Positions 18,372-61,922 of a DNA stretch of 64,000 nucleotides are shown piece after piece; the first letter of the stretch is position 1, and every line of letters begins with the position of its first letter. Source of the DNA: Bacteroidales bacterium. Its GTDB lineage: Bacteria; Bacteroidota; Bacteroidia; Bacteroidales; UBA7960. Made by a program: the position numbers and the translations under genes. Location of the stretch: NCBI GenBank assembly GCA_019429365.1, contig JAHYJD010000003.1, positions 30,689 through 94,688 of the forward strand. The letters run 5' to 3'. The notes beneath the pieces are model-generated. The model worked only from the letters and a program-made list of their open reading frames with translations. It made no database searches and was not told the DNA's origin.

Positions 18372-18402
18372 ACACGATGTTTATTGTGGTTCAACATCAT
18401 AA

Positions 18403-42518: not shown

Positions 42519-42554
42519 AACCGCTTTGGATATCAGAGCGGTTTCTTTGTTTTT
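42519..42554 (+). terminator. Rho-independent terminator after the lycopene cyclase gene
   Basis: AACCGCT (42519-42525), 11-nt loop, AGCGGTT (42537-42543), then TCTTTGTTTTT. Confidence 0.6.
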
Positions 42555-42602: not shown

Positions 42603-42610
42603 TAAATTTG
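42603..42610 (+). promoter_or_regulatory. Candidate -7 box TAAATTTG immediately upstream of the ECF sigma gene
   Basis: Matches TAnnTTTG and ends 5 nt before ATG 42616. This implies either a leaderless mRNA or a downstream start (Met17, nt 42664). Confidence 0.35.
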
Positions 42611-42615
42611 ACAAA

Positions 42616-43167
42616 ATGACCAACGAATTTATAAGCCAATGGGTTTCACTTTACACAGAGGATATGTTTAAGTGGGCTTTGCACAAAACATCTTCCCATG
42701 AAATTTCTGAAGATTTGGTACAGGATACTTTCATGGCTGCTACCGAGAAGATTTCGTCTTTTAAAGGCGACAGCACTCCAAAAACCTGGCTTTTTTCCAT
42801 TTTAAACAACAAAATTGTGGACTATTACCGGAAAAAAGTGAAGCAGGCAGTGCCAATGGAGGATCAGGTTTTTGCCTCGGTTTTCGATGCATCGGGGTCG
42901 TGGGTTAACAACCGGATGCCCCATGAATGGCATGACAGTGAAACCAACCTGCTCGATGACGAAGCGTTTCAAAAGGTATTGAAACACTGCTTGGATGCCT
43001 TGCCCGAAAAATGGAACCTATGCGTTAAGCTGAAATATCTGACCAATAAAAATGGCCAGGAAATTTGTCAGGAATTGAATCTAACCGCGTCCAACTTTTG
43101 GCAAATTATTCATCGGGCTAAATTGCAATTACGGGTTTGTATTGATCAAAACTGGTTTAATAATTAA
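42616..43167 (+). CDS. ECF-type RNA polymerase sigma-70 factor
   Basis: Region 2 (EDLVQDTFMAATEKISSFKGDSTPKTWLFSILNNKIVDYYRK) and region 4 (LPEKWNLCVKLKYL...GQEICQELNLTASNFWQIIHRAKLQLR). Confidence 0.85.
   Translation: MTNEFISQWVSLYTEDMFKWALHKTSSHEISEDLVQDTFMAATEKISSFKGDSTPKTWLFSILNNKIVDYYRKKVKQAVPMEDQVFASVFDASGSWVNNRMPHEWHDSETNLLDDEAFQKVLKHCLDALPEKWNLCVKLKYLTNKNGQEICQELNLTASNFWQIIHRAKLQLRVCIDQNWFNN
43066..43092 (+). promoter_or_regulatory. Candidate ECF-type promoter P0, internal to the 3' end of the sigma gene
   Basis: TGTCAGG (43066-43072), N15, CGTCC (43088-43092). The flank AAATTTGTCAGGA is identical to the one at site 49445-49458. About 80 nt upstream of the anti-sigma ATG. Confidence 0.4.
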
Positions 43168-43172
43168 TTTCA

Positions 43173-43433
43173 ATGAAAAGCATAAAGCATTTTTTTCTTA
43201 TTTCATGTTTAAAGGCCACTGAGTTAATGGAAAAGAATTTTCATTTCAAACTTTCTTTTTCTGAACGTCTTCAGCTAAAGGTGCATAAGTCAATGTGCAA
43301 GGCTTGTGCTCTTTACGACAAGCAAAGTGCCGCGATTGAAAAGGGCATTTCCAGGCAAATCAGCCAAGAGCACATTAAGACAGATATTGAAGGATTAAAA
43401 AACAAAATCCATCAAATGCTTGAAAGTAAATAG
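43173..43433 (+). CDS. Small soluble zinc-binding (ZAS) anti-sigma factor, RsrA-like
   Basis: 86 aa with no TM helix. Ligand pattern C12-x25-H38-x3-C42-x2-C45 (HKSMCKAC). Starts 6 nt after the sigma stop. Confidence 0.7.
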   Translation: MKSIKHFFLISCLKATELMEKNFHFKLSFSERLQLKVHKSMCKACALYDKQSAAIEKGISRQISQEHIKTDIEGLKNKIHQMLESK

Positions 43434-43472
43434 CATTCAAAACTTAAGTCTCTTTTTTTAAATTGGCTCAGA

Positions 43473-44033
43473 ATGGCAAGAATAAAAACCATTTCGCATG
43501 CTGATGCATCGGGAAGATTGCTCGAAATTTATGATGAACTGGTAAGAAAGCGAGGAAAACTTGCTGAGATTCATCAAATTCAGAGCTTAAGGCCCGAAAG
43601 CATTGTAAAGCATATGGAGCTCTATATGGAGATCATGTTCTCTAAATCTGAATTAAGCCGTTCGGAGCGCGAAATGATGGCCGTAGCGGTTTCGGTTGCC
43701 AATGGTTGTGCATATTGCCGCGAGCACCACCTTCAAGCATACAGGTTTTATGAAAAGGACAATTCAAAAGTTTTTTCTGTTATTAACTGGCCATTAAATA
43801 ATGTGCTTTCCGATCGGGAAGCCTCCTTATGCCATTTTGCCCGCTCCCTGACCCTCGATCCCCAAAGCCACGAAAGCAATGATTATACTGCTGCGCTGAA
43901 GACGGTTGGCTTGAGCGATGCAGGAATTCTTGATGCTGTATTGGTAATTGCCTATTTCAATTTTGTAAACCGGATCGTTTTGTCATTAGGCCTTGAATTC
44001 ACTCCCGAAGAGGCCACCGGCTACAAATACTAA
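43473..44033 (+). CDS. Carboxymuconolactone decarboxylase / AhpD-like peroxidase-related protein
   Basis: 186 aa. AhpD-core CxxC motif in VANGCAYCREHH. Confidence 0.75.
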   Translation: MARIKTISHADASGRLLEIYDELVRKRGKLAEIHQIQSLRPESIVKHMELYMEIMFSKSELSRSEREMMAVAVSVANGCAYCREHHLQAYRFYEKDNSKVFSVINWPLNNVLSDREASLCHFARSLTLDPQSHESNDYTAALKTVGLSDAGILDAVLVIAYFNFVNRIVLSLGLEFTPEEATGYKY

Positions 44034-44050: not shown

Positions 44051-44077
44051 TGTAAGGAAGCTTCTTTTTATGCGTCT
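44051..44077 (+). promoter_or_regulatory. Candidate ECF-type promoter P1
   Basis: TGTAAGGAAG (44051-44060), then CGTCT (44073-44077). There are 15 nt between TGTAAGG and CGTCT. Intergenic, about 100 nt upstream of the thioredoxin-like gene. Confidence 0.55.
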
Positions 44078-44175: not shown

Positions 44176-44640
44176 ATGCTAAAAACTAAACGTATGAAAA
44201 TGAAAAAACTGGGTTTAATAATCGTGGCTTTTACAGTCACATCTTTATCAATGGTATTTGGTTCAGAAACAAAAAATGAGGCCGGAGAAGCAGGTATCGT
44301 TTTTCATGAAGGAAGCTGGGATCAAGCCCTGCAGCTTGCCAAGGAAGAGAACAAGCTGATATTTCTGGATGTTTATGCTACCTGGTGTGGGCCTTGTAAA
44401 AGACTGAAGGCTAATACTTTTCCTGATGCTGCGGTGGGCGAGTTTTACAATGCCAACTTCATAAATGTGGCCCTGGATGGCGAAAAGGGCGAAGGCCTGG
44501 AGCTTGCCCGAAAGTATAATGTAAGGAGTTATCCCAGCCTCTTGTTCATCGATTCCAACGGCCAGATCGTTGGCAGAACCGCAGGCTTCCACAATCCCGA
44601 CCGGTTTTTGGAACTGGGTCGTGCCATTGTAAACCTGTAA
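44176..44640 (+). CDS. Secreted thioredoxin-family protein
   Basis: Signal peptide (MKMKKLGLIIVAFTVTSLSMVFG), active site WCGPCK. The start may be 44176, 44194 or 44200. Confidence 0.8.
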   Translation: MLKTKRMKMKKLGLIIVAFTVTSLSMVFGSETKNEAGEAGIVFHEGSWDQALQLAKEENKLIFLDVYATWCGPCKRLKANTFPDAAVGEFYNANFINVALDGEKGEGLELARKYNVRSYPSLLFIDSNGQIVGRTAGFHNPDRFLELGRAIVNL

Positions 44641-44680
44641 TCCTTTATTTACCACTTTTTCAGGCTGTCCCTTTTCTGGG

Positions 44681-45685: not shown

Positions 45686-45712
45686 TGTAAGGAAGATGAC
45701 ATGCAGACGTCT
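45686..45712 (+). promoter_or_regulatory. Candidate ECF-type promoter P2
   Basis: TGTAAGGAAG (45686-45695), then CGTCT (45708-45712). Same 15-nt spacing as P1. 49 nt upstream of ATG 45761. Confidence 0.55.
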
Positions 45713-45760: not shown

Positions 45761-46117
45761 ATGACAAAAATTGCAATCGTAATTTATTCTGACACAGATA
45801 CCATGGAAGCCCTTGGAAAAGTATCCAATGCATTTGTTTTGGCCAATGAGGCCATTGACCATGGCGACGACCTGAAGATCATTTTTGAAGGGGCCGGGAC
45901 CAAATGGATCGGCGCTCTTGAAGATGAAGGGCATAAGATGCATGGTATGTACAAAGCCCTGAAAAATAGGATTACCGGAGCATGTAAGTATTGCGCCCAA
46001 GCCTTTGGCGTTAAGTCGCAGGTCGAAAAGGCCGGTGTTACCTTGCTGGACGATTACAAGGACCATCCCAGTATGCGAAATCTTGTAGCCGATGGATATA
46101 ACGTACTAATTTTCTAA
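45761..46117 (+). CDS. DsrE/DsrF-like family protein (cytoplasmic paralogue)
   Basis: 118 aa. MTKIAIVIYSD... and the GACKYCA motif. Paralogous to ORF 51754-52179. Confidence 0.6.
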   Translation: MTKIAIVIYSDTDTMEALGKVSNAFVLANEAIDHGDDLKIIFEGAGTKWIGALEDEGHKMHGMYKALKNRITGACKYCAQAFGVKSQVEKAGVTLLDDYKDHPSMRNLVADGYNVLIF

Positions 46118-46232
46118 AACATTTTGTTGTAGCTCACAGGTTTCATTCTCAGGATAATATTCATAAAGTATAATATTGATCGCTGCCTGAAGGAGGCCTG
46201 GGTGCTTCAACCTTTTAAAAAAATTATCACTC

Positions 46233-46706
46233 ATGAACAGAAAAAAAATACTAAAAATTGTAGCAATCCTTGCCGTTGCCGGATTGCTTATCGGAGGAGG
46301 GATCGGTGCCTATATGTTTTTCATGCCGCACCGCGACATCCAGAAATCACCCACTGACTTTGCCCTGACCAGTTCCGAGCTTGTGGCTGAATATCTGAAC
46401 GACATGGAACAGGCTAACCAAAAATATCTTTCTGCAGATGGAGAATCGAAGATTCTCGAAATTACGGGTACAGTAGCCGGCATCACTGAAGATTATAACG
46501 GCCAACAAGTAGTGTTGCTTAAAGAACCGGGCCAGGTGGCCGGCGTGAGCTGCACCTTTATGCAGGAGACCAATTCTAATGCAACAGCCCTTAACATTGG
46601 GCAATCAGTAACCATAAAAGGTGTGATCCGCTCAGGCGTGTTTTACGATCCTGACCTGGAAATGCACCTCAACGCCGTACTCGAAAAGAGCGATGTTGTT
46701 TTTTAA
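46233..46706 (+). CDS. Membrane-anchored OB-fold (tRNA_anti-like family) protein
   Basis: N-terminal TM helix (ILKIVAILAVAGLLIGGGIGAYMFF), then SELVAEYLNDMEQANQKYL...ILEITGTV...SVTIKGV, typical of this Bacteroidota family. Confidence 0.55.
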   Translation: MNRKKILKIVAILAVAGLLIGGGIGAYMFFMPHRDIQKSPTDFALTSSELVAEYLNDMEQANQKYLSADGESKILEITGTVAGITEDYNGQQVVLLKEPGQVAGVSCTFMQETNSNATALNIGQSVTIKGVIRSGVFYDPDLEMHLNAVLEKSDVVF

Positions 46707-46741
46707 CCCAATTTTTTTTTAAACCTTAATGAATTAGAAAA

Positions 46742-47311
46742 ATGAAAACCACGAAAATCCTTTTAACCGCTTTTATTACCATTGTTTTTTCAATGACAGC
46801 CTTTAGCCAGGCAGGTGATCGGCTGGTAAGCAGCAAATCACACATTAAATTCTTCTCCACCACCCCTGCAGAAGACATTGAAGCGAATAACTATTCAAGT
46901 ACCAGCACCATTAATACATCCAATGGCAATGTGGTATTTTCAGTGCCTATGCAGGGATTTGAATTCCCTAAAGCCCTAATGCAAAGGCATTTTAATAATT
47001 CCGACTTCCTGGACACCAAACAATTTCCAAATGCCAGGTTTGTTGGAAAGATTGTAAACCTTGATCAGGTAGATTTTTCGGCCAATGGCACCTACAACGC
47101 ACAGGTGGAAGGCGAAATGACCATAAAAGGAGTAACCAAGCCTATTCGCGAAAGAGGAACCATTACCGTGAGGGGAAATTCCATTGAGATAAACAGCAAG
47201 TTTAACCTTACCCTGGCTGATTATGGAATTGAATTTGTTAAAGGCAAACCGGCCAGCAATATTGCCAAGACCGTAGAGGTGACCTTTGTTGGTGAATATC
47301 AAAAACAATAA
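46742..47311 (+). CDS. YceI-family periplasmic polyisoprenoid-binding protein
   Basis: Signal peptide, then SHIKFFSTTPAEDIEANN...MTIKGVTKPI. Confidence 0.75.
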   Translation: MKTTKILLTAFITIVFSMTAFSQAGDRLVSSKSHIKFFSTTPAEDIEANNYSSTSTINTSNGNVVFSVPMQGFEFPKALMQRHFNNSDFLDTKQFPNARFVGKIVNLDQVDFSANGTYNAQVEGEMTIKGVTKPIRERGTITVRGNSIEINSKFNLTLADYGIEFVKGKPASNIAKTVEVTFVGEYQKQ

Positions 47312-47318
47312 AATAACT

Positions 47319-47364
47319 AAATGGGTGTTGCGCCTCGTCTGGTGCTTCACCCATTTCTTTTTTT
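47319..47364 (+). terminator. Probable rho-independent terminator after yceI-like gene
   Basis: AAATGGGTG (47319-47327) pairs with CACCCATTT (47348-47356) and is followed by CTTTTTTT. The loop is long (20 nt). Confidence 0.5.
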
Positions 47365-47376
47365 AGCTTGATCAAT

Positions 47377-47889
47377 ATGACACGTATTTTACTTCCTGCT
47401 TTCTTCCTGATTTTTATTCTTGTTTTACCTTCTAAGGCTAATCATCCGCAACAAGATCAACTATTGTTTTTAATTAACCGAAGTGTGGACAGAAATGAAG
47501 TTCATTACGTTGTAAACCTGGATAAATCTGGCTTCTTAGATAAGCACCAGCCTGTCAAAGTTTTTTGGGTCAAGCACGAAGAAAAAGGCCAAAGAGAGCC
47601 ATTAACCAGAATTCAGAATAAGTTTTCATATGGGCTTGAATTTATTCATGTAGATAGAGAAAAGGCCACTTTCAGGATAATTGCCCAGGACCAGCTTTTT
47701 GAGGTTTCAAAGGGTGCTAATGGGCGATTTAGGGCTGTGGCCCTGAAACCGAATGCCCAAGTGGTAGTTGAAAGAATTTTTGTACAAATTGATGGGGGTT
47801 CATTTTTGGTACCCAAAGTTTCAAAGGTTGAAATAAAAGGTTTTACTTTGGAAACTGGTAAATATTTTGTTGAAGCCCTGAAGCCTTAA
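47377..47889 (+). CDS. Secreted hypothetical protein (DUF4833-like)
   Basis: ATG 47377 (MTRILLPAFFLIFILVLPSKA). LFLINRSVDRNEVHYVVN resembles the DUF4833 family as I remember it. Confidence 0.45.
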   Translation: MTRILLPAFFLIFILVLPSKANHPQQDQLLFLINRSVDRNEVHYVVNLDKSGFLDKHQPVKVFWVKHEEKGQREPLTRIQNKFSYGLEFIHVDREKATFRIIAQDQLFEVSKGANGRFRAVALKPNAQVVVERIFVQIDGGSFLVPKVSKVEIKGFTLETGKYFVEALKP

Positions 47890-47916
47890 CCTGAAAACAA
47901 TTTAATTTTTTTTACC

Positions 47917-48582
47917 ATGACAAAATCATTGCCTCGCTCAGTCAATTATATAATAGAAGCACTCAATAAAACGGAAGTCATAGATAATAATATCCTTCCG
48001 GAGATTATTGAATCGGCCGGGCTGAAAGAAGAAGATCTTTTGCCCTTTAACAGCTTTCTGCATCCTGAAAGTGAGAGTTATGGTCGCTATCAGATATATG
48101 GCAATGACCGGTATAAGATTTTGTTGATGTCATGGCGGCCAGGCGATTTCACCGCCATTCACGATCATGGACTGGTTGAATGGGGTTGTGTCTGCTTCTT
48201 TGGTAAAACCACTCATCGGACCTATGCGTTTCAGGATGGACAACTTCGATTGAGTAAATGCGATGTTTTTGAAGCAGGACAGATTAGTTTGCTGAAAGGA
48301 GAACTTACCCACATGATGGGAAATGGAAGCAGTGCGAATATTATTACCCTTCACATTTATGGCGCGGATTCAGGTGTCGCTTTTAAAGAAGGACTGGCAA
48401 AAGTTTATGCTCCTGAGGAAAAAAAACTTTTTTATACTTCAGGAGAAGCTTATCTCGACATTTGCCATCGATTCGTTAAACACGAAGAAGATTTTTTTGC
48501 CTTTGATAAAGAAACTGTTTTTGACTACATAAGACTCACCAAATCTTTTTTCCTCAAAAGGAGAAGATTGATTCAAATTTAA
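47917..48582 (+). CDS. Cysteine dioxygenase type I-like cupin (thiol dioxygenase family)
   Basis: LMSWRPGDFTAIHDHG...LTHMMGNGSSANIITLHIYG matches the CDO pattern W-x-PGQ-x-x-x-IHDH ... H-x-V-x-N ... SLH-x-Y (3-His metal site). Confidence 0.65.
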   Translation: MTKSLPRSVNYIIEALNKTEVIDNNILPEIIESAGLKEEDLLPFNSFLHPESESYGRYQIYGNDRYKILLMSWRPGDFTAIHDHGLVEWGCVCFFGKTTHRTYAFQDGQLRLSKCDVFEAGQISLLKGELTHMMGNGSSANIITLHIYGADSGVAFKEGLAKVYAPEEKKLFYTSGEAYLDICHRFVKHEEDFFAFDKETVFDYIRLTKSFFLKRRRLIQI

Positions 48583-48602
48583 AATACCTTGACCCTGAAA
48601 AA

Positions 48603-49235
48603 ATGTTGGAAATGACCTTTTTGCTTGAACAAATTTTTGCACCCTTGTTGATTGGTTTTTTTGCTGCAACTGTTGGTGCCTTGCCTTTTGGGCTGGTTAA
48701 CCTTAATGTGGTAAGATTAGCTCTTCTGGGTCAGAAAAGGTATGCCGTAAAGGTGATCCATGGCGCTGCTTTTATTGAAGTGCTTTACGGATTTTTTGCC
48801 ATTCTTGCCGGCAGTGCCGTTTTTGTTCTTACTGAAGGCAACAACTGGGTTAATGCAATGGTTGTTGTGGTTCTTTTGGTTGCAGGTTTGTATTTCTTTA
48901 CTAAGAAACCTGGCTCAAAAGTTCAGGGTAATAACCAAAACCATGGTTTCTTTTATGGGGCCCTGTTGAATTTGCTTAGCGTACAGGTGTTTTTTTACTG
49001 GATCATTGCCCTGGTTTTTATTCATTCAAGAAATGTGATTACCTTCGATATCCCATCAATAATGGTTTTTGTTTTTGGCCTCTGGTTAGGTAAGATCACC
49101 ACTTTATTGGGGTACTTTTATTTCAGTAATAAGATACTTTCACGTTCACAGTTTTTTGAAAAAAACATTAATCGTGTCATTGGGGCAATTCTCCTGGCAG
49201 CAAGCGTTTTGCAAGGGGTTAAAATAACCCTCTAA
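48603..49235 (+). CDS. LysE/RhtB-family amino-acid (or metabolite) exporter
   Basis: 210 aa with about 6 TM helices. N-terminal GALPFGLVNLNVV segment typical of the family. Confidence 0.6.
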   Translation: MLEMTFLLEQIFAPLLIGFFAATVGALPFGLVNLNVVRLALLGQKRYAVKVIHGAAFIEVLYGFFAILAGSAVFVLTEGNNWVNAMVVVVLLVAGLYFFTKKPGSKVQGNNQNHGFFYGALLNLLSVQVFFYWIIALVFIHSRNVITFDIPSIMVFVFGLWLGKITTLLGYFYFSNKILSRSQFFEKNINRVIGAILLAASVLQGVKITL

Positions 49236-49449: not shown

Positions 49450-49475
49450 TGTCAGGATTTGATCTTAGGGCGTCT
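49450..49475 (+). promoter_or_regulatory. Candidate ECF-type promoter P3
   Basis: TGTCAGGATT (49450-49459), then CGTCT (49471-49475). 14-nt spacing. Intergenic, 88-127 nt upstream of the OM-barrel gene. Confidence 0.5.
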
Positions 49476-49601
49476 ATTTTTTTGAAACATTTTTTTAGGC
49501 AAAGGCGGGTATAAAAATTTCCTTTTAATAACGCCAATTGATGCGTCAAGTTTATCCACCCAATGACTTGCAAAATCATGTGTTTTAGAAAGAGTCTGGC
49601 C

Positions 49602-50645
49602 ATGAGAAAATCAAAACATACTCAAATTTACAGTAAAGAAAGGCAATCAGGATTCGGGGTGAAAGCCCAGTTTTTCCTTGCAATAGTATTTTCCTTTGTA
49701 TTATGGTTTGTAAATGAAAGGGCATATTCTCAGGCCTGCTGCTCAGGTGGTGTTCCGTTAGGGGGTAGTTTGGGCCTGGGTACGGCTGAGCGCAAATCCA
49801 TTCAATTTCTTGTTACTTATGATTTCAATGCCATTAACGACTTAATGGATGGTTCAAGACGCTTGTCCGATGATACCCGTAGCAGGACGACCCATTCTTC
49901 TATCCTTGAAATTAATTACGGGTTAACGTCACGCTTTTCCATTGCAGGGGTGTTTCCGCTTATTCGCCAGGAACGCGACATAAACGCCTATGCTGGAGCC
50001 AGGGATTTTACAGCTACCCAAGGATTGGGCGATGTGGCCATGCTTTTCAAGATTCGTGTTTTAAATCCTGAAAAGAAATCAGACTGGGAAGGAGTGGTTG
50101 GTGCCGGCCCTAAGTTTCCAACAGGAAGAACTACATTTACTAACAACCTGGGCCTGGCCTTGCCTGCTGATTTGCAACCTGGCTCTGGCTCATGGGATGG
50201 TTTGTTCTGGAGTTTTTTTCAGAAACGCAATGTCTCCCATCCCAACCTAAGCATAATGGGGGTTGCAACCATGCGGATTACGGGTGAGAATAAAAATTAC
50301 AACCAAACCCAGGTGTATCAGTTTGGCAATGAATTTCAGTTTAATCTGGGTGGCAACTATTCAGCTTACCTGCAATGGCCCCTGGATATTTTTGCCTGGT
50401 TCAGATACCGTAACCAGGCCGAGGACTTTATTGATGGGAGTGCTTTTCCAGGTTCAGGGGGGCAATGGGTATATTTCATCCCGGGCGTCAATATCCATTT
50501 CCTCGACAACCTGTCTTTCCGCCTTTCAGGTGATATCCCATTATACAGGCAACTCAACGGAACCCAACTGACTACCAGTTACCGGATAACCTTATCCCTT
50601 TCGTATAATTTGCCTTTGCACAATGAATCATTAATCTTTAATTAA
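49602..50645 (+). CDS. Outer-membrane beta-barrel protein with N-terminal Cys-Cys motif
   Basis: Signal peptide ...FVLWFVNERAYSQ, then ACCSGGVPLGG at the predicted mature N-terminus. Alternating beta pattern to the end. The start may be 49563, 49578 or 49602. Confidence 0.6.
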   Translation: MRKSKHTQIYSKERQSGFGVKAQFFLAIVFSFVLWFVNERAYSQACCSGGVPLGGSLGLGTAERKSIQFLVTYDFNAINDLMDGSRRLSDDTRSRTTHSSILEINYGLTSRFSIAGVFPLIRQERDINAYAGARDFTATQGLGDVAMLFKIRVLNPEKKSDWEGVVGAGPKFPTGRTTFTNNLGLALPADLQPGSGSWDGLFWSFFQKRNVSHPNLSIMGVATMRITGENKNYNQTQVYQFGNEFQFNLGGNYSAYLQWPLDIFAWFRYRNQAEDFIDGSAFPGSGGQWVYFIPGVNIHFLDNLSFRLSGDIPLYRQLNGTQLTTSYRITLSLSYNLPLHNESLIFN

Positions 50646-50656
50646 AACCGACCATT

Positions 50657-51700
50657 ATGAGAACTTTAATTATATCCTCCATGGCTTTTTTGCTTTTTTT
50701 AAGTAGCTGCCAGGATGAAGTAATGACCAATAACCCACCCATGGGTTCCAGTCAATGGCTGGTTCCCAGGGACGAAGTGCTTGACGGTGGCCCAGGAAAG
50801 GACGGGATTCCCGCCATTGACAACCCCCAATTTGTCAATGTGGCTGCAGTGCAATTTTTAACCGACGACGATCTTATCCTTGGCTTTGCCGATGGAGAGG
50901 ATATACGTGCCTACCCCCATCCGATCCTGAATTGGCACGAGATTGTAAATGACGATACCCAAAACCATTCTATTGCGGTAATTTACTGCCCGCTCACCGG
51001 AACAGGAATTGGCTGGGACAGGATGGTGAAAAATACCAAAACCACGTTTGGCGTTTCTGGGCTATTATATAATTCCAATATCATTCCTTACGACAGGCTT
51101 ACCGACAGTAACTGGTCGCAACTGATGATGCGTTCTATAAACGGCGAAATGATTGGAGCCCAGCCCAATTCTTATAGCTTGATTGAAACCACCTGGAAGA
51201 CCTGGAGGCAGTTGTACCCAAATTCAAAAGTATTGTCAACGAATACTGGATTTAACCGAAACTACGAAAATTATCCTTATGGGAGCTATAGATCTGGGGC
51301 GCACCTCATTTTTCCTGTTAATCATACCGATGATCGTCTGCACCCCAAAGAAAGGGTCCTGGCCGCATTTTTTGGTGACAGGCTTATAGCCTATACTTTT
51401 GAACTGTTTGATGAGAACCTCTCTATTGTAAATGATGAGTTCGTGGTAGCTGGAAGCCGTGATTTGAACCTGATGGTGGCATTCAGAAGGGTGCTGGATG
51501 GCACAACACTTGAATTTTCACCCTTACAGGATCAATTGCCCGTGATCATGCAGGACAATGAAGGAAATCAGTGGGATATTTTTGGAAGGGCTGTAACGGG
51601 TCCCCGCCAGGGCCAATCGCTCAGCCAACCAACACAAATGATGGGGTACTGGTTTGCTTTCGCGGCATTTTATCCGGATCTGCAGCTTTTTGAACCCTGA
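50657..51700 (+). CDS. DUF3179-family lipoprotein
   Basis: Lipobox FLLFLSSC. DGIPAIDNPQF...YPHPILNWHEIVND...VIYCPLTGTG resembles the DUF3179 signature. Confidence 0.6.
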   Translation: MRTLIISSMAFLLFLSSCQDEVMTNNPPMGSSQWLVPRDEVLDGGPGKDGIPAIDNPQFVNVAAVQFLTDDDLILGFADGEDIRAYPHPILNWHEIVNDDTQNHSIAVIYCPLTGTGIGWDRMVKNTKTTFGVSGLLYNSNIIPYDRLTDSNWSQLMMRSINGEMIGAQPNSYSLIETTWKTWRQLYPNSKVLSTNTGFNRNYENYPYGSYRSGAHLIFPVNHTDDRLHPKERVLAAFFGDRLIAYTFELFDENLSIVNDEFVVAGSRDLNLMVAFRRVLDGTTLEFSPLQDQLPVIMQDNEGNQWDIFGRAVTGPRQGQSLSQPTQMMGYWFAFAAFYPDLQLFEP

Positions 51701-51753
51701 GGAAGGCAGAAAAATTGTAACTTCATTCATTGGAAATACTAAAAATAAGCAAA

Positions 51754-52179
51754 ATGAAAGTAAAAAAGATTATTCCTTTGTTGTTTGTATTCATGTTCCT
51801 TTCCTTGAATATTAAGGCACAAAGTTCAACAGTTGAAGCAAACCACGATCATCTGGTCATAGTATGGACCAGCGACGACCCCTACATTGCCGAACGTATG
51901 GTTTTAATGTATGCTCATGCATCCAAAACCGCTGGATGGTTTGATGAAGTTACCCTTATCATCTGGGGCCCATCGGCCAAAATGGTTGCCGAGAACCTCA
52001 AAATACAGGAAAAACTGAAGGCCATGCAGCAAGACGGTGTGGAAATCAGGGCATGCATTGTTTGTGCCAACATGTATGATGTAACGGAAGAGCTCAAAGC
52101 CATGGGATTTGATGTGCAGGGAATGGGGAAACCCCTGACGGAATATCTGAAAGGCGGCGCCAAAGTTTTGACTTTCTGA
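51754..52179 (+). CDS. Secreted DsrE/DsrF-like family protein (periplasmic paralogue)
   Basis: ATG 51754 gives MKVKKIIPLLFVFMFLSLNIKAQ (signal peptide). RACIVCANMYDV motif and a ...KVLTF end, paralleling ORF 45761. Confidence 0.55.
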   Translation: MKVKKIIPLLFVFMFLSLNIKAQSSTVEANHDHLVIVWTSDDPYIAERMVLMYAHASKTAGWFDEVTLIIWGPSAKMVAENLKIQEKLKAMQQDGVEIRACIVCANMYDVTEELKAMGFDVQGMGKPLTEYLKGGAKVLTF

Positions 52180-52181
52180 TC

Positions 52182-52859
52182 ATGTCATCAAACCTTAAAC
52201 CTGCCGTCCTTTCTCTGGAGAAATTCAAAGAGATGGACTACCAGGCGGTGGAGAAGTATCAGCTTCCCATTGAATTGATGATGGAAAACGCTGGCCTTCA
52301 ATTGGCCCGGCTTGTTTCAACTTGCGCGAAAGAAAAGGCCAAAGTACTTGTTGGAGTTGGAAAGGGTAACAATGGTGGTGGTGGGTTGGTGGCTGCCCGG
52401 AGGCTTGCAGGATGGGGTTTCAGGGTTTTCCTTCACTTGCCCGAAAAAGATTTGAAGCCTCTTCCGGCATTGCAATTGTCAAGGGCGCTTGCTTTCGGAG
52501 TAAATCCTGAACCCATTCCTGACCCCGATATATTTGTGGAGGCCTACCTTGGCTTTTCACAACGGCTGCCCCTGTCAGCACCTGTTTTTGAAGCGGTTGA
52601 AAAAGCAAACCATTTGCAATGCCTTAAAATCTCGCTTGACCTCCCGACGGGTTTTGATATCAATACCGGTGAAAGCATTTTCAAACCCGACATAATCCTC
52701 ACGCTCGCTGCCATGAAAAAAGAATTGTTACTTCCTGGTGTATCTGCTCAATTGTATGTTGCAGACCTTGGGATCCCAGCTAGCCTTTACCAAAATTTTG
52801 GCGTTCAGCAACCCCGGGAATTTAAAGTTTCTGGTATTTTTAAATTTTCAGGAAAATAA
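52182..52859 (+). CDS. NAD(P)H-hydrate epimerase (YjeF N-terminal domain only)
   Basis: VLVGVGKGNNGGGGLVAARRL and the DLPTG motif. 225 aa stand-alone domain. Confidence 0.75.
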   Translation: MSSNLKPAVLSLEKFKEMDYQAVEKYQLPIELMMENAGLQLARLVSTCAKEKAKVLVGVGKGNNGGGGLVAARRLAGWGFRVFLHLPEKDLKPLPALQLSRALAFGVNPEPIPDPDIFVEAYLGFSQRLPLSAPVFEAVEKANHLQCLKISLDLPTGFDINTGESIFKPDIILTLAAMKKELLLPGVSAQLYVADLGIPASLYQNFGVQQPREFKVSGIFKFSGK

Positions 52860-52878: not shown

Positions 52879-52904
52879 TGTCAGGATTTCCTTTCATGAC
52901 GACA
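52879..52904 (+). promoter_or_regulatory. Candidate ECF-type promoter P4 in front of the pentose-phosphate operon
   Basis: TGTCAGGATT (52879-52888), identical to the P3 10-mer, then CGACA (52900-52904). 14-nt spacing. 46 nt upstream of ATG 52950. Confidence 0.45.
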
Positions 52905-52949
52905 ATATGCATAAAACAGGGTCAATTTGTTCATTTAAAAAAATTAAAG

Positions 52950-53846
52950 ATGAAAATTGGATTTATTGGATTAGGAAAAATGGGTTTCAATATGGTTCAT
53001 CGTTTGTTAAAAAACGGCCACGAAGTGGTTGTCTGGGACCGCTCTGATGAGACCATTAAAGAAATGGAAAAACTGGGAGCGCAAGGCGCCGCATCGCTCG
53101 ATGATCTGGTGTCGAAGTTACCCGAAAGGAAAGCCGTGTGGCTGATGGTGCCTGCCGGCAAACCGGTTGATGAAAACCTCGCGGCTTTGCTTAAGCTTCT
53201 GAATAAAAATGATATCATCATCGATGGGGGTAACTCTTACTGGAAAGAATCTCAGCAACGCGCTCAAAAAGCAGAAGAACAAGGTGTTCACTTCCTTGAT
53301 GTAGGAACCAGTGGGGGCGTATGGGGTCTGCAAAACGGCTATTGCCTGATGTATGGTGGCAATGGAGAAGCCGCTGCTTTTTTGGAGCCTGTTTTTAAAA
53401 CCCTGGCGCCAGAAAGCGGGTATGTATATTGCGGCCCATCAGGAACCGGACACCTGGTAAAAATGGTTCACAATGGCATCGAATATGGTATGATGCAGGC
53501 TTATGCAGAAGGTTTTGAAATCCTTGAAAAATCTCCATATAAAATTGATATTGCCAAAGTTGCGAATGCATGGCGATATGGCAGCGTGGTACGATCGTGG
53601 CTGCTCGACCTGGCCGTAAATGCCCTCGAAGAAGATCCGGGGCTTGATAAGCTGGAGCCGTTCGTGCAGGATAGCGGAGAAGGAAGGTGGACGGTTCAAA
53701 CTGCCATTGACTTTGATGTGCCGGCACATGTAATCACCGCTTCTTTGTTTACCCGATTTCAGTCGAGGCAGAAGGACTCTTTTGCCATGAAAATGCTTGC
53801 GGCTTTAAGAAATCAGTTTGGTGGCCATGCCGTAAAAACCAAGTAA
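52950..53846 (+). CDS. gnd: 6-phosphogluconate dehydrogenase, short (YqeC/Gnd-like) form
   Basis: MKIGFIGLGKMGFNMVHRLLKNGHEVVVWDRS...GHLVKMVHNGIEYGMMQ. The ORF-track start at 52896 would include the promoter-like motif. Confidence 0.85.
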   Translation: MKIGFIGLGKMGFNMVHRLLKNGHEVVVWDRSDETIKEMEKLGAQGAASLDDLVSKLPERKAVWLMVPAGKPVDENLAALLKLLNKNDIIIDGGNSYWKESQQRAQKAEEQGVHFLDVGTSGGVWGLQNGYCLMYGGNGEAAAFLEPVFKTLAPESGYVYCGPSGTGHLVKMVHNGIEYGMMQAYAEGFEILEKSPYKIDIAKVANAWRYGSVVRSWLLDLAVNALEEDPGLDKLEPFVQDSGEGRWTVQTAIDFDVPAHVITASLFTRFQSRQKDSFAMKMLAALRNQFGGHAVKTK

Positions 53847-53847
53847 G

Positions 53848-55383
53848 ATGAAAGGGAATAACAATAAAACCGAGAACCAGCTATTGGTCATCTTCGGGGC
53901 CACCGGTGACCTGAACAAACGCAAGCTCATGCCCTCGCTTTATGCCCTGGATGTTTTGAACCTGTTGCCTGAAAAACTCGCAATAGTCGGGTCAGGTCGG
54001 ACTGTACTCACTGATGAGGAATTCCGGCATTCTATGATTGTTGCCATCAGGGAATTTTCAAAAGAAAAAGACCTCAGCAAAGTGGAAGCATTTGCGAGCA
54101 GGCTTTTTTATCAGACCGTTAACCCATCAAAGGTTGATGATTTTCAAATTCTGAATAAACGGCTTGAAAGCCTGCGCGAGCAACTGGAAATCGGTAGCCA
54201 AAACATTATCTTTTATTTATCAACGCCACCCAGTCTTTACGAAATCATTCCGCAAGGCTTGGCAGCCGCCGGACTCAATAATGAAGAAAAAGGATGGAAA
54301 CGGCTGATTGTGGAAAAACCTTTTGGTTACGATCTGGAAGGGGCAGAAAAACTGAATACAAGCCTGCAGAAAAACTGGAACGAAGAACAAATATTCCGAA
54401 TTGACCATTACCTGGGGAAGGAAACAGTTCAAAACGTGATGGTTACCCGATTTTCAAATGGCATTTTTGAACCATTGTGGAACCGTAATTTTATCCATCA
54501 TGTGGAAATTACATCCGCCGAGAATTTTGGGGTGGGTCAGCGTGGCGGATACTATGAGGGATCGGGTGCTTTGCGCGATATGGTTCAAAACCACCTGCTG
54601 CAGCTTGTCAGCCTAATAGCCATGGAGCCGCCTGCATCTATTGATGCCAACGCCATTAGAAATGAAACCGTAAAGGTGCTTCAATCGCTGCGTCCAATCA
54701 GCGAAGACAAGGTTGGCAGTGTTGCCATTCGCGGGCAATATGTGGAATCACAGATTCAGGGAGCGCATATAAAAGGCTACCGTGAAGAAGCAGGAGTGGA
54801 TCCGGCTTCAAAAACGGAGACCTTTGCTGCGTTGAAGTTTTATATCGATAACTGGCGCTGGGGTGGGGTTCCTTTTTATATCCGCACCGGCAAGCATCTA
54901 CCCACAAAGGTAACCGAAGCGGTCATTCACTTCAAGCCTACTCCCCACCACTTGTTTGCACAAAAAGGATCGTGCGACACCTGTAACCAGCTGATTATTC
55001 GTATTCAACCCGATGAGGGTATTCTGATAAGATTTGCCATGAAAACGCCGGGCGCGGGGTTTCGTGTAGAAAATGTGAGTATGGATTTTCATTATTCCGA
55101 CCTTTCGAATGTTCGGATTCCTGATGCCTACGAGCGCCTTTTACTCGACAGTATGACCGGTGACTCTACGCTGTATGCACGCATTGATGCCGTAATGGCT
55201 GCCTGGAAATTTATTGCTCCGATTCAAAATGCATGGAAAAACAATCCTGAGATACCGGTTTACGGATATCCGGCAGGTAGTTGGGGGCCAGATGTAGCCG
55301 ACAACCTGATCGAAGAACCTGAAATGACCTGGAGGCATCCATGTGCAGCACTTACCAGCGATGAAAACTTCTGTAAATTATGA
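53848..55383 (+). CDS. zwf: Glucose-6-phosphate 1-dehydrogenase
   Basis: VIFGATGDLNKRKLMPSLY and the active-site motif RIDHYLGKE. Confidence 0.95.
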   Translation: MKGNNNKTENQLLVIFGATGDLNKRKLMPSLYALDVLNLLPEKLAIVGSGRTVLTDEEFRHSMIVAIREFSKEKDLSKVEAFASRLFYQTVNPSKVDDFQILNKRLESLREQLEIGSQNIIFYLSTPPSLYEIIPQGLAAAGLNNEEKGWKRLIVEKPFGYDLEGAEKLNTSLQKNWNEEQIFRIDHYLGKETVQNVMVTRFSNGIFEPLWNRNFIHHVEITSAENFGVGQRGGYYEGSGALRDMVQNHLLQLVSLIAMEPPASIDANAIRNETVKVLQSLRPISEDKVGSVAIRGQYVESQIQGAHIKGYREEAGVDPASKTETFAALKFYIDNWRWGGVPFYIRTGKHLPTKVTEAVIHFKPTPHHLFAQKGSCDTCNQLIIRIQPDEGILIRFAMKTPGAGFRVENVSMDFHYSDLSNVRIPDAYERLLLDSMTGDSTLYARIDAVMAAWKFIAPIQNAWKNNPEIPVYGYPAGSWGPDVADNLIEEPEMTWRHPCAALTSDENFCKL

Positions 55384-56111
55384 GCACCAGATCCATCCAT
55401 GTTTTCCCTGCAGTAAATGATTTGGCTGCATTCTTTGCCGATCTGTTAAGCAAAGAGATGGCGCGTTTGAAAACCGGAGAATTCTTTTCTCTGGCACTTT
55501 CGGGGGGCTCCACTCCCAAAGCCGTTTTTGAATACCTGTCACAGCATAAGCAGCACATCCCATGGCAGCGCCTTCAGCTATTTTGGGGTGATGAACGGTG
55601 TGTGCCTCCAGAACATCCTGAAAGCAACTACAATATGGTCCAAAACAGTCTGCTTCGCCATATTTCCATACCAAGTGGCCACATCTTCAGAATAAAAGGG
55701 GAGGCTGAACCTCAAGCTGAGTCTGTACGCTACGCTGAAACCATAGTGGAAAAGATCCCTTCGGTAAATAAGGTGCCTCGCTTTGACCTGGTCATGCTGG
55801 GGATGGGCGAAGATGGCCATACGGCATCTTTATTTCCGGGCAATATCAATGTCGGGGGCAGCCAAAGTTTGTTTGAAGTGGCAACGCATCCGGTATCGGG
55901 TCAGCGCAGGATCACGGCCACCCTCGAGCTGATCAATAATGCCAAAACAATCGTTTTTCTGGTAACCGGCCAGTCGAAAGCCGAAATGCTTTCGCGAATA
56001 TTGGAAAAAAAGGAAGGCTGGGAACGGTATCCTGCTTCAATGGTTAAGGCCAATCATGGAAAAGTATTATGGCTGACAGACAATGCGGCTGCCTCAAAAC
56101 TTAAAATTTAA
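55380..56111 (+). CDS. pgl: 6-phosphogluconolactonase
   Basis: LALSGGSTP...LFWGDERCVP...GMGEDGHTASLFPG. Has a 4-nt ATGA overlap with zwf. Confidence 0.9.
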   Translation: MSTRSIHVFPAVNDLAAFFADLLSKEMARLKTGEFFSLALSGGSTPKAVFEYLSQHKQHIPWQRLQLFWGDERCVPPEHPESNYNMVQNSLLRHISIPSGHIFRIKGEAEPQAESVRYAETIVEKIPSVNKVPRFDLVMLGMGEDGHTASLFPGNINVGGSQSLFEVATHPVSGQRRITATLELINNAKTIVFLVTGQSKAEMLSRILEKKEGWERYPASMVKANHGKVLWLTDNAAASKLKI

Positions 56112-56135
56112 CCTATCGCTAATCATTAAGCAAAA

Positions 56136-58184
56136 ATGCAAAAACCTAAAATATCAAAAGAACTCGAAAAGCGGGTCATTGATACCATCAGAACCCTTTC
56201 AATGGATGCAGTGCAGGAGGCCAATTCAGGCCATCCCGGAACGCCCATGGCCATGGCGCCAGTGACCTTTACGCTTTACAATCGGTTGATGAAGTTCAAC
56301 CCCAAAAATCCAACTTGGATGAACCGCGACCGTTTTATCCTGTCGGCTGGTCATGCTTCAATGTTGCTTTACGCGACACTGCATGTAACAGGATATGAGG
56401 TCAGCCTTGACGAAATAAAATCGTTCAGACAACTTCACAGCGCCACTCCGGGCCACCCGGAATATGGCCACACCCCGGGTGTGGAAACAACCACCGGCCC
56501 ACTGGGACAGGGACTTGCAACCAGCGTTGGCTTTGCCATCGCACAAAAATGGCTGGCTGAGCGATATAACAAGCCGGGTTTTAACCTGATTGATTATCAT
56601 ATTTATTCACTGGCCGGCGATGGTTGTATGATGGAGGGCATTTCGTATGAAGCGGCTTCATTGGCCGGGCATTTAGGCCTGAATAACCTGGTTTGGATTT
56701 ACGACAGTAACAATATCACCATCGAAGGTAGTACTTCACTGGCTTTCTCTGAGAATGTGGCCAGACGTTTTGAAGCGCAAGGCTGGAATGTACTGGCAGT
56801 TGATGATGCAAACGATACCGAAAAATTGCATCAAACGCTTACCAAGGCCAGGAATGCAACCGATGCCCCCACATTGGTTATTGTGAAAAGCCATATCGCT
56901 TTTGGTGCTCCCAATAAACAGGACACACACGGCGCTCATGGCGCTCCATTGGGCGATGAGGAGATCAGAGAAACCAAGAAATTTTATGGTTGGGATCCGG
57001 ATAAAAAATTCTTTGTACCCAATGATGTTTCGCAACACGCCCTTGATATTGCTAACCGTGGCTTGAAACAAAATGCCGAATGGGATGAGCTTTTTGCAGC
57101 TTATCAGAAAGAATACCCGCAACTGGCCTCCGAACTGATTATGATTCAGAATAATGAATTGCCTGAAGGCTGGGACGCCGGATTACCGGTGTTTGAAGCA
57201 GGTACCAAAATGTCGGGCAGGGTTGCCAGCAGTAAAGTGTTGAATATTCTGGCTGGCAACATCCCATTTATGATGGGCGGATCGGCTGACTTATCGCCTT
57301 CCACGCTAACTGATATTAAAACTGAAAGCAGTTTTGAAAGAAATAATCCGGGTGGCAGGAATATGCACTTCGGTATCAGGGAGCATGCCATGGGCGCCAT
57401 CGCCAACGGAATGGCACTGAGTGGCCTGCGGACTTATGCTTCCACATTTCTGGTTTTCTCAGATTATATGCGTGGATCCATCCGCTTGTCGGCGCTGATG
57501 AAGCTGCCGGTAACCTATGTTTTTACCCACGATAGCATTGGGGTAGGCGAAGATGGCCCAACCCACCAACCCATTGAGCAGGTGGCTTCGCTTCGGGCAA
57601 TACCAAACCTGGAGGTGATCCGACCTGCCGACGCCAATGAAGTAGCTGTGCTTTGGAAACACATTGCTGCACAAAAACAAAATCCTGTAGCCCTGATCCT
57701 AAGCCGTCAAGACTTGCCGGTGATCGACAGGGATGTTTATGCCTCAGCCAATGAAGCATTGAAAGGAGCTTACGTATTGATGGACAGTAGCCAGAATCCC
57801 GATATAATACTGATGGCCACCGGTTCGGAAATTCAGCTTGCGTTACAAGCCGCTGAAAAATTAAAAGACCGTAACATCCAGGTCAGGGTGGTGAGCATGC
57901 CATCCTGGGAGCTTTTCGACCGGCAAGACGAAGCCTACCGCCGGTCAGTCCTTCCTCATCATGTTAAAGCTCGAATAGCAATAGAAGCCGGGGCGCATAT
58001 GGGCTGGCATAAATATGTTGGGCTGGATGGGGCTGTCATCGGCATGCAATCTTTTGGCGCCTCCGGAAAATTACCACAACTTTTGTCAGCATTTGGGTTT
58101 ACAGCCGACAATATTACTGAAACGGCACAATCACTTTTAAATATCGAAAAACTAAAAACAAATTCAAATGAACCAAAACACTAA
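56136..58184 (+). CDS. tkt: Transketolase (full-length, single polypeptide)
   Basis: ANSGHPGTPMAMAP, GDGCMMEG, and the HDSIGVGEDGPTHQPIE motif. Confidence 0.95.
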   Translation: MQKPKISKELEKRVIDTIRTLSMDAVQEANSGHPGTPMAMAPVTFTLYNRLMKFNPKNPTWMNRDRFILSAGHASMLLYATLHVTGYEVSLDEIKSFRQLHSATPGHPEYGHTPGVETTTGPLGQGLATSVGFAIAQKWLAERYNKPGFNLIDYHIYSLAGDGCMMEGISYEAASLAGHLGLNNLVWIYDSNNITIEGSTSLAFSENVARRFEAQGWNVLAVDDANDTEKLHQTLTKARNATDAPTLVIVKSHIAFGAPNKQDTHGAHGAPLGDEEIRETKKFYGWDPDKKFFVPNDVSQHALDIANRGLKQNAEWDELFAAYQKEYPQLASELIMIQNNELPEGWDAGLPVFEAGTKMSGRVASSKVLNILAGNIPFMMGGSADLSPSTLTDIKTESSFERNNPGGRNMHFGIREHAMGAIANGMALSGLRTYASTFLVFSDYMRGSIRLSALMKLPVTYVFTHDSIGVGEDGPTHQPIEQVASLRAIPNLEVIRPADANEVAVLWKHIAAQKQNPVALILSRQDLPVIDRDVYASANEALKGAYVLMDSSQNPDIILMATGSEIQLALQAAEKLKDRNIQVRVVSMPSWELFDRQDEAYRRSVLPHHVKARIAIEAGAHMGWHKYVGLDGAVIGMQSFGASGKLPQLLSAFGFTADNITETAQSLLNIEKLKTNSNEPKH

Positions 58185-59244
58185 ACTTATTTATTCAAAG
58201 GGAGTTAGCCTTTGGCTCGACAATATCACCCGCACGATGCTCGATGATGGCACGCTCAAACAATACATCCAGGAATTAGGCATTACAGGCCTGACTTCCA
58301 ACCCGACCATTTTTGAGAATGCCGTTGCCAAGACCAATGATTATGATGCTGCAATACAGCAGGTTGCTACCAAAGAAATGACCGATGAAGACCTGTTCTT
58401 CACCTTGGCTATTGAAGACATTCAGCGGGCTGCCGATTTTTTCAGGCCTGTTTTTGAACGAACCAACGGTCTCGACGGATTTGTGAGTATCGAAGTATCC
58501 CCGCTGCTTGCCTACGATACTGAAAATACGCTGGCTGCAGCCAAAACGATTTTTAAGGAAGTCAATCGGCCCAATGCCTTTATTAAAATTCCGGGAACGC
58601 CCGAAGGCCTTCCTGCCATAGAGAAAGCCATTGCTGAAGGCATTCCTGTTAATGTTACGCTCCTATTTTCGGCTGAGCAATATAAAGCCGCAGCAGCAGC
58701 CTACCTCAAAGGCATTCAGCAACGTATTGCAAAGGGCTTAAACCCCGATGTGCGCTCGGTAGCTTCGGTATTTGTGAGTCGTTGGGATAAAGCCGTTGCC
58801 GATCAGCTTCCCGATGATTTGCAAAATCGCCTGGGTATTGCCGTGATGCAAAAAACCTATCAGGCTTATCTCGAATTTTTGGCTTCGACCGAAGTTCAAA
58901 CGGTGATGAATGCGGGTGTTTTCCCGCAGCGCTTATTGTGGGCAAGTACTGGGACCAAAGATCCAAAAGCATCCGATATATTGTATGTAAAAGAATTGGT
59001 CGCCCCATATGTTGTGAATACTGTGCCTGAAAACACCCTGCTTGCCTTTGCCGATCATGGTGAAGTTAACAATATGATGCCGAAAAACCTTTCAGAAGCT
59101 GACGATATCCTGGCTGAGATGGCAAAATACAAAATTGATTACAAGCAACTTGCCATCCAGTTGCAAAGCGCAGGAGCCGAAGCATTTATCCAATCGTGGA
59201 AACATTTGGTTGAAGCCATTCGGATAAAAAGATCACAACTTTAA
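58168..59244 (+). CDS. tal: Transaldolase (long, about 360-aa type)
   Basis: [11 protein letters not shown]...[13 protein letters not shown]...FIKIPGT. Overlaps tkt by 17 nt. Confidence 0.9.
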
Positions 59245-59254
59245 ATCTATAGAA

Positions 59255-61895: not shown

Positions 61896-61922
61896 TGTAA
61901 GGATGACCTTCGGCCAGCGACT
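61896..61922 (+). promoter_or_regulatory. Candidate ECF-type promoter P5
   Basis: TGTAAGGATG (61896-61905), then CGACT (61918-61922). 15-nt spacing. Intergenic, 128 nt upstream of the rhodanese-thioredoxin gene. Confidence 0.45.

Follow-up and report, generated by a model that had tools for sequence, protein, structure and literature searches.

A small CHCC protein as a putative ZAS-type anti-sigma factor of an ECF sigma factor in Bacteroidota

Small soluble anti-sigma factors that lack a sensor domain are known from the SigR-RsrA pair of Streptomyces coelicolor and the SigH-RshA pair of mycobacteria, both of which belong to group ECF12 among the sigma factors with extracytoplasmic function (ECF) and have a redox-sensing ZAS protein, and soluble class-I anti-sigma domains (ASDIs) were reported to be enriched in zinc motifs, which the authors linked to intracellular redox sensing (PMC7406223). 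The redox sensitivity of RsrA has been mapped to residues E39, E40, L45 and E46, and RsiW and ChrR were found to be insensitive to thiol oxidants (Jung et al., PMC3177212). Bacteroidota carry the most ECF sigma factors per genome of the phyla analysed, with a mean of 22.5 (PMC7826278), and Casas-Pastor et al. detected a class-I anti-sigma domain near about 6% of Bacteroidetes ECFs and near none of the Bacteroidetes members of ECF12 (PMC7406223). Here we describe a gene pair in a 64,000-nucleotide (nt) stretch of a Bacteroidales genome (assembly GCA_019429365.1, contig JAHYJD010000003.1, positions 30,689 to 94,688; hereafter the window), in which a gene for an ECF sigma factor is directly followed by a gene for an 86-aa protein carrying one histidine and three cysteines (CHCC). 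We consider it highly probable, from sequence and gene order, that the 86-aa protein is the cognate anti-sigma factor of the adjoining sigma factor, and propose that it likely belongs to a minimal, cytoplasmic class of class-I (ZAS-type) anti-sigma factors. The context gives good support to regarding it as the anti-sigma factor that controls a thiol/sulfur stress regulon.

The sigma gene ends with a TAA stop codon at 43165-43167, followed by the five nucleotides TTTCA and the ATG (43173) of the 86-aa open reading frame (ORF). The initial annotation had described a small ORF without a transmembrane helix right behind the ECF sigma gene, and this was confirmed, the gap being measured as 5 nt. 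Translation also reproduced the C12/H38/C42/C45 motif it had reported, in the pattern C12-x25-H38-x3-C42-x2-C45; these are the only three cysteines in the whole protein, and all four residues are invariant in its relatives. The maximum Kyte-Doolittle mean over 19 residues is 0.71 in the window protein (0.47-1.34 over 73 orthologues), a value from which the 86-aa protein is predicted to be soluble and without a membrane helix. The gene call on record for the window, P0004, is 68 aa long, starts at M19 and drops C12. However, residues 1-18 are conserved, including the invariant S11-C12-L13, and the long 86-aa form is therefore favoured over a start at M19. Gene callers often pick this internal Met19 (window 43173-43226 for the residues ahead of it), giving a 68-aa product without the first ligand C12, and the same truncation is seen in some Elizabethkingia records. 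The 86-aa gene is a real, conserved coding gene. 'Hypothetical protein' is the annotation that nearly all members of its family carry, and the truncated records lack the first metal ligand.

A word-indexed search retrieved 76 relatives of the 86-aa protein, all of about 87 aa, and those with a name were called 'hypothetical protein' with the exception of one evident misannotation. When 1.84 billion cluster representatives (50% identity) were searched exhaustively with a profile, 2,209 of them matched at E <= 1e-3, among these 485 at E <= 1e-10; the best 150 of the 2,209 are 66-118 aa long. C12, H38, C42 and C45 were invariant together with ten further positions across 38 close relatives (alignment A1), and in 58 diverse relatives (30-59% identity; alignment A2) no column other than these four was invariant; as the sole invariant residues, the four are the signature of a predicted metal site. 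The family extends over Marinilabiliales, Prolixibacteraceae, Lentimicrobium, Chitinophagales (Ferruginibacter) and Flavobacteriales (Elizabethkingia), a taxonomic spread that bears out the Bacteroidota-like background suggested earlier. Searching of full-text literature found no experimental work on the 86-aa family.

A scan with one genome per species showed that at least 302 genomes carry a relative, and 80 loci were fetched. The small gene lies directly 3' of an orthologous sigma gene (46-65% sigma identity) in 80/80 loci, with both genes co-oriented and a median gap of about 8 nt. Within 4 kb of the pair, AhpD-like genes were found in 23 loci, thioredoxin genes in 17, DsrE genes in 11 and Omp85-like genes in 8, so the sigma/small-protein pair alone is the constant element of the 80 loci. 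Two separate pairs, L027 and L069, come from a single metagenome-assembled genome (assembly PCUL01), and paralogous copies of the pair thus exist within a genome.

The 86-aa protein shows the H-x3-C-x2-C signature of the ZAS or class-I anti-sigma domain (Pfam zf-HC2, PF13490), which is present and invariant, as well as a fourth ligand of the ZAS type, C12, located 25 residues ahead of H38, as compared with 25 residues in RsrA, 26 in RsiW and 24 in ChrR. The NCBIfam model NF052368 ('anti-sigma factor family protein') matched residues 10-55 of the window protein (E 6e-11, 42 bits) and 38/38 close relatives with a best E of 1.3e-14, while Pfam zf-HC2 gave weak matches in 19 of the 58 diverse relatives (best E 6.8e-5), and some Elizabethkingia members carry the UniRef label 'Zf-HC2 domain-containing protein'. 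Membership of the broad ZAS superfamily, though sub-threshold, is therefore considered likely. An AlphaFold2 (AF2) monomer model built from the 38-sequence alignment predicted helices at residues 2-24, 29-65 and 72-85 with a mean confidence score (pLDDT) of 74. In this model an antiparallel hairpin places C12 opposite residues 38-45, and H38, C42 and C45 (i, i+4, i+7) occupy one helical face, a modelled geometry that would be compatible with a tetrahedral site bridging two helices. The dCas12f-associated sigma-E of Flavobacteriia was considered as a possible source of the NCBIfam name 'antisigmaE' and was dismissed as unrelated.

In other genomes, the motif TGTCAGG-N14/15-CG(A/T)C is common to the sequences upstream of orthologous thioredoxin and DsrE genes. 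The window contains six sites of the form TGT[CA]AGG-N14/15-CG[AT]C, all on the plus strand and all between 43 and 62 kb, compared with a Markov-shuffle expectation of 0.12 (Table 1). When the motif was relaxed to allow G or T at the seventh -35 position and spacers of 14-16, the 80 loci yielded 159 sites, of which 158 lie on the sigma strand. From this association we infer that the window sigma factor reads the TGT[CA]AGG motif. The commonest first gene after the motif in other genomes encodes a thioredoxin or rhodanese-thioredoxin (31 sites in 30 loci), and the rhodanese-thioredoxin of the window falls into the same cluster; next come genes for tRNA_anti-like proteins (18), DsrE (8), a 728-aa secreted protein (7) and a small secreted CxxC protein (7), followed by peroxiredoxin-like, NADPH-dependent flavin mononucleotide (FMN) reductase-like (read from sequence) and 6-phosphogluconate dehydrogenase genes. 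The DsrE and tRNA_anti-like genes of the window likewise recur behind motif sites at other loci. A regulon dominated by thiol, sulfur and NADPH functions had been predicted before, and both the non-random occurrence of the motif and the genes behind its sites support this theme. Searching the literature for the string TGTCAGG brought up nothing but primer sequences.

One of the six sites lies inside the 3' end of the sigma gene, and the end of its -10 element precedes the anti-sigma ATG by 82 nt. At this site, codon 151 is TGT in 72/72 orthologues (background 68%), codon 152 is CAG in all 68 cases among the 72 in which it encodes Gln (background 51%), codon 158 ends in CG in 42/72 (background 10-26%), and the full motif is present at the aligned position in 41/72. 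The bias at synonymous sites of codons 151, 152 and 158 argues for selection on the DNA itself, and the internal site is probably a sigma-dependent promoter that drives the anti-sigma and AhpD-like genes in a feedback loop. Ahead of the operon, a candidate Bacteroidota housekeeping -7 box would serve, as inferred from its position, as the promoter for the sigma, anti-sigma and AhpD-like genes; exact TAnnTTTG sequences within 80 nt 5' of the sigma ATG were found in 17/76 orthologous loci, compared with 4.9 in shuffles. A search for positive autoregulation from a promoter 5' of the sigma gene gave a negative result, as an ECF-type -35 element within 160 nt 5' of the sigma gene was present in 2/76 loci only.

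The sigma factor passes the general model TIGR02937, and its best subfamily is TIGR02943 with 138.7 bits (below the cut-off of 162.2), as compared with 46.3 bits for the actinobacterial SigH model TIGR02947. Its best solved relative is SigH of Mycobacterium tuberculosis (E 1.6e-9, 41 bits). The sigma-4 cysteines C125, C151 and C175 are conserved to 100%, 99% and 99%, respectively, in 73 orthologues, and BLASTP against SigK aligned C125 with C133, C136 with C144 and C175 with C183, within an overall low similarity (30.8 bits, 21% identity). In SigK, C133 and C183 form a redox-sensing disulfide that is conserved in ECF18 and ECF19, whose partner is an RskA-like anti-sigma factor (PMC7826278). 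The C125/C175 pair of the window sigma factor may hence, by this alignment, provide a second redox input.

Several observations weigh against reading the 86-aa protein as a ZAS-type anti-sigma factor with a redox switch. The 42 bits of the window protein fall below the curated 50-bit cut-off of NF052368, and the protein has no Pfam match, including zf-HC2 at E <= 1. The AF2 model merges helices 2 and 3 of the four-helix anti-sigma domain fold into one and is of moderate confidence only. Foldseek comparison of this model with the PDB gave nothing at E <= 0.001, the top matches being generic helical hairpins at E > 1, and neither the protein sequence on its own nor the family profile retrieved an anti-sigma domain from the sequences of solved structures; the best matches of the latter search, the CP190 BTB protein and Atx1, were regarded as chance similarity to the H/C-rich stretch. 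Furthermore, the CHCC motif and its spacing are shared with the oxidant-insensitive RsiW and ChrR, and the RsrA residues E39, E40, L45 and E46 align with S40, M41 and positions 46 and 47, both of them variable in the family. Finally, genomic association is the sole link between the promoter motif and this particular sigma factor.

The initial annotation had tied the protein specifically to RsrA, and this link did not hold. The RsrA family model TIGR02949 (mycothiol system anti-sigma-R factor) gave no match at E <= 1, and hhalign of alignment A2 was not significant against a 21-sequence RsrA family (probability 0.66%, E 0.086), nor was hhalign of the family against a single RsrA sequence (E 0.13); both matches were weaker than those with ChrR (E 0.00075) and RsiW (E 0.018), and in every comparison the aligned part was the HxxxCxxC core only. 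Comparison of the family with anti-sigma profiles, proposed in the same annotation, thus yielded a resemblance to NF052368 and zf-HC2, but one below threshold for the window protein and without a match to RsrA. The RsrA-like ligand spacing that had been pointed out is indeed identical, but it is generic to ZAS proteins and occurs in RsiW and ChrR alike: RsrA has C11-x25-H37 (H37/C41/C44), RsiW C3-x26-H30-x3-C34-x2-C37 and ChrR H6-x24-H31-x3-C35-x2-C38, as checked against PDB chains 5frf (RsrA), 5wuq_C (RsiW) and 2q1z_B (ChrR), with 4nqw_A used for SigK. The spacing is hence a general property of the ZAS fold. Since the motif is also found in oxidant-insensitive ZAS proteins, and since the RsrA determinants are absent, a CHCC motif with RsrA-like spacing is in itself no evidence of a redox switch, and the 'RsrA-like thiol switch' is, on the present alignments, an analogy and not homology. 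A thiol switch is plausible for the 86-aa protein because of the content of the regulon and the absence of any other sensor domain.

We propose the following model. The sigma and anti-sigma factors would be co-transcribed from the housekeeping-type promoter and translated at a ratio near 1:1, keeping the sigma factor sequestered in unstressed cells. The CHCC centre would bind a metal, most likely Zn2+, which bridges helix 1 (C12) and the next helix (H38, C42, C45). Thiol-reactive stress, such as disulfide stress, oxidative stress or reactive sulfur species, would attack the metal-thiolate centre, and loss of the metal together with disulfide formation would release the sigma factor. The free sigma factor would then direct RNA polymerase to TGT[CA]AGG-N14/15-CG[AT]C promoters and induce the exported thioredoxins, the rhodanese-thioredoxin, DsrE, cysteine dioxygenase, the AhpD-like protein and the pentose-phosphate operon. 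The internal copy of the motif would boost the synthesis of fresh, reduced anti-sigma factor and of the AhpD-like protein, a negative feedback resetting the system, while the sigma gene itself would not be positively autoregulated. The SigK-like pair C125/C175 in sigma-4 may add a second redox input to this scheme.

It is quite possible, if not quite probable, that the CHCC centre of the 86-aa protein is itself the stress sensor. Direct sensing is the most economical model because the protein has no other domain, its ligands are the sole invariant residues and the regulon is one of thiol, sulfur and NADPH functions. The main rival, which we consider rather unlikely, is an anti-sigma factor with a purely structural metal site, as in RsiW and ChrR, with the signal entering instead through the sigma-4 pair C125/C175, through proteolysis of the small protein or through changes in operon transcription only. 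ZAS motifs are indeed often structural (PMC7406223, PMC3177212), the lack of the RsrA redox determinants and an hhalign result that does not favour RsrA over ChrR or RsiW fit such a site, and the near-complete conservation of C125 and C175, aligned with the redox pair of SigK, offers an alternative sensor. On the other hand, the 86-aa protein lacks any further domain able to receive a signal, the 80 loci show no conserved protease or partner gene beside the pair, and neither the restriction of invariance to the four ligands nor a regulon theme that suits a thiol-based trigger speaks for a structural role.

Two further explanations concern the nature of the centre and of the protein as a whole. 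That the CHCC centre holds an iron-sulfur cluster in place of zinc, and senses O2, NO or iron-sulfur status, appears improbable. Three cysteines and one histidine are able to bind iron-sulfur clusters, many hosts of the family are sediment Bacteroidales and Marinilabiliales, and a study of RshA reportedly described such a cluster. The abstract of PMC3427169, in its opening part, questions RshA as a zinc protein. However, nothing in the sequence favours iron-sulfur over zinc, the matching models are zinc-finger anti-sigma models, and the window organism appears to possess an aerobic respiratory chain, to judge from cytochrome oxidase-type ORFs at 9.5-22.7 kb. We regard it as very improbable that the 86-aa protein is not an anti-sigma factor at all but a small metal-binding accessory (for instance a metallochaperone, a co-factor that stabilises the sigma factor, or a redox client of the AhpD-like protein) that does no more than share a transcript with the sigma gene. 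Such a role would agree with the sub-threshold score of every curated profile match for the window protein and with the missing structural match to an anti-sigma domain, but not with the placement right after the sigma gene in every locus at a few bases' distance, which is the standard sigma/anti-sigma arrangement, nor with the NF052368 matches to all close relatives, down to E 1.3e-14. The presence of an AhpD-like gene in just 23/80 loci shows, moreover, that it is not an obligatory partner.

Table 1. Features of the sigma operon and of the predicted regulon in the window
Feature	Position	Strand	Remarks
Terminator-like hairpin	42519..42543	+	11-pair stem, T-rich tail; ends lycopene cyclase unit
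Candidate Bacteroidota housekeeping -7 box TAAATTTG	42603..42610	+	consensus TAnnTTTG; ends 5 nt before sigma ATG
ECF sigma factor, 183 aa	42616..43167	+	Pfam Sigma70_r2, Sigma70_r4_2
Sigma C125 codon	42988-42990	+	
Sigma C175 codon	43138-43140	+	
Internal motif copy TGTCAGG-N15-CGTC	43066..43091	+	inside sigma gene 3' end, codons 151-159 (C-Q-E-L-N-L-T-A-S)
86-aa CHCC protein gene (C12, H38, C42, C45)	43173..43433	+	putative ZAS-type anti-sigma factor
AhpD-like / peroxidase-related CxxC protein	43473..44033	+	C79-A-Y-C82; cytoplasmic; third operon gene
Motif TGTAAGG-N15-CGTC	44051..44076	+	upstream of exported thioredoxin gene
Exported thioredoxin-like protein	44176..44640	+	signal peptide, WCGPC; Pfam Thioredoxin_2, Thioredoxin_7, Thioredoxin
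Omp85-like beta-barrel ORF, 320 aa	44681..45643	+	weak Omp85 match, E 1.6e-4; homologues in 8 loci; behind 44051 site, with the thioredoxin gene
Motif TGTAAGG-N15-CGTC	45686..45711	+	
DsrE-like, tRNA_anti-like membrane protein, YceI, DUF4833, cysteine dioxygenase type I, 210-aa membrane protein	45761..49235	+	behind 45686 site
Motif TGTCAGG-N14-CGTC	49450..49474	+	
360-aa unknown protein, DUF3179 lipoprotein, exported DsrE-like, YjeF_N (NAD(P)HX epimerase-type)	49563..52859	+	behind 49450 site
Motif TGTCAGG-N14-CGAC	52879..52903	+	overlaps mechanically called ATG 52896
Pentose-phosphate operon (NADPH supply)	52896..60871	+	behind 52879 site
Motif TGTAAGG-N15-CGAC	61896..61921	+	
Exported rhodanese-thioredoxin fusion	62050..62772	+	Pfam Rhodanese + Thioredoxin; behind 61896 site

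The third gene of the operon begins 39 bases after the 86-aa ORF, and its product matched TIGR01926 (peroxidase-related enzyme) with 138 bits against a cut-off of 81.8 as well as Pfam CMD, which confirms the earlier assignment as an AhpD-like CxxC protein; homologues lie within 4 kb downstream in 23/80 loci. Further along, the Omp85-like ORF is shorter at its N-terminus by about 125 residues, signal peptide included, than the homologue in L004 (443 aa with signal peptide), and may be a truncated remnant. A terminator-like hairpin at 44662-44687 overlaps its ATG. The pentose-phosphate operon comprises genes for a 6-phosphogluconate dehydrogenase-like protein, glucose-6-phosphate dehydrogenase, 6-phosphogluconolactonase, transketolase, transaldolase and phosphoglucose isomerase. 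The true start of its 6-phosphogluconate dehydrogenase-like ORF is probably M19 at 52950 and not 52896, as the homologue L059_6652 starts at MKIGFIGLGKMG, the equivalent of M19. In other genomes, motif sites in L021 (from 2114) and L068 (from 5110) precede genes for small secreted proteins with Cys/His-rich repeats, such as 'KDHVCT(S/A)AC..GNHVYAHGEKGHVC' and 'KEAKCGEGKCG', and it is possible, to judge from their composition, that these are periplasmic metal- or sulfur-binding members of the same regulon.

Directly 5' of the sigma operon, at 40999-42506, are a desaturase-family ORF on the minus strand and a lycopene cyclase gene on the plus strand, and because of these two genes the organism probably makes carotenoids. 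The lycopene cyclase unit and the sigma operon are separated by the hairpin downstream of the cyclase gene. The carotenoid genes suggested a light or singlet-oxygen system of the ChrR/CarQ type, which was considered and rejected, since lycopene cyclase, the only one of them tested, was without a homologue in the 80 loci. Elsewhere in the window, a run of ORFs on the minus strand (9553-22695) resembles an aerobic respiratory chain with cytochrome oxidase-type subunits, and, as alternative complex III does, includes a molybdopterin-type protein (986 aa), both read from the ORF translations only.

As the 86-aa protein is divergent, escapes Pfam and is annotated from an internal start in some records, surveys such as that of Casas-Pastor et al. 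would miss it. Somewhat speculatively, the pair might form the core of a Bacteroidota-wide thiol/reactive-sulfur response with a minimal CHCC anti-sigma factor, a SigK-like second input and an internal promoter serving the inhibitor only, a broader reading that we hold to be doubtful. If it were true, standard anti-sigma searches would be missing a minimal CHCC factor, which would partly explain the figure of 6%, and the stress signal would induce the inhibitor only and never the sigma factor. Recognition of the family gives a candidate regulator for one widespread ECF group, and the promoter motif allows a regulon to be predicted from sequence. The pair also offers a compact system for studying how these bacteria, among them the clinically relevant Elizabethkingia, cope with thiol/sulfur stress by sensing it in the cytoplasm and answering it largely in the envelope.

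Within the same phylum, EcfO-Reo of Bacteroides and Phocaeicola and SigH of Porphyromonas gingivalis (ECF114) share with the window pair a link to oxygen or oxidative stress, but a small CHCC protein takes part in neither. EcfO is paired with Reo, a very large anti-sigma factor spanning five cell compartments (PMC13114119); as a dual-membrane-spanning protein of this kind, Reo was rejected as the known counterpart of the 86-aa protein; P. gingivalis SigH is listed among the groups without a known regulator (PMC7826278). The pair resembles SigK-RskA of M. tuberculosis (ECF19) and group ECF18 in the sigma-4 cysteines at the positions of SigK C133/C183, but differs in having an 86-aa soluble protein with a zinc-type motif as partner and no RskA-like anti-sigma factor. 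With RpoE-ChrR of Rhodobacter sphaeroides and SigW-RsiW of Bacillus subtilis it shares the HxxxCxxC core and an upstream fourth ligand at 24-26 residues, but ChrR has a C-terminal cupin domain and RsiW is membrane-anchored and removed by proteolysis, whereas the 86-aa protein is predicted to be soluble and consists of a single domain.

In overall design the pair also resembles SigR-RsrA and SigH-RshA of group ECF12. As in these, the predicted anti-sigma factor is small, soluble and without a sensor domain, its CHCC spacing is identical (C11/H37/C41/C44 as compared with C12/H38/C42/C45), the small gene lies directly 3' of the sigma gene and the predicted regulon is centred on thiol redox proteins and reducing power; in addition, the SigH of SigH-RshA is the best solved relative of the window sigma factor. 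SigR promoters follow GGAAT-N18-GTT and are unlike the motif of the window. Unlike sigR, the window sigma gene appears to have no sigma-dependent promoter 5' of it, the putative one being located inside the gene and ahead of the anti-sigma gene instead, and, unlike in SigR-RsrA, many products of the predicted regulon are exported.

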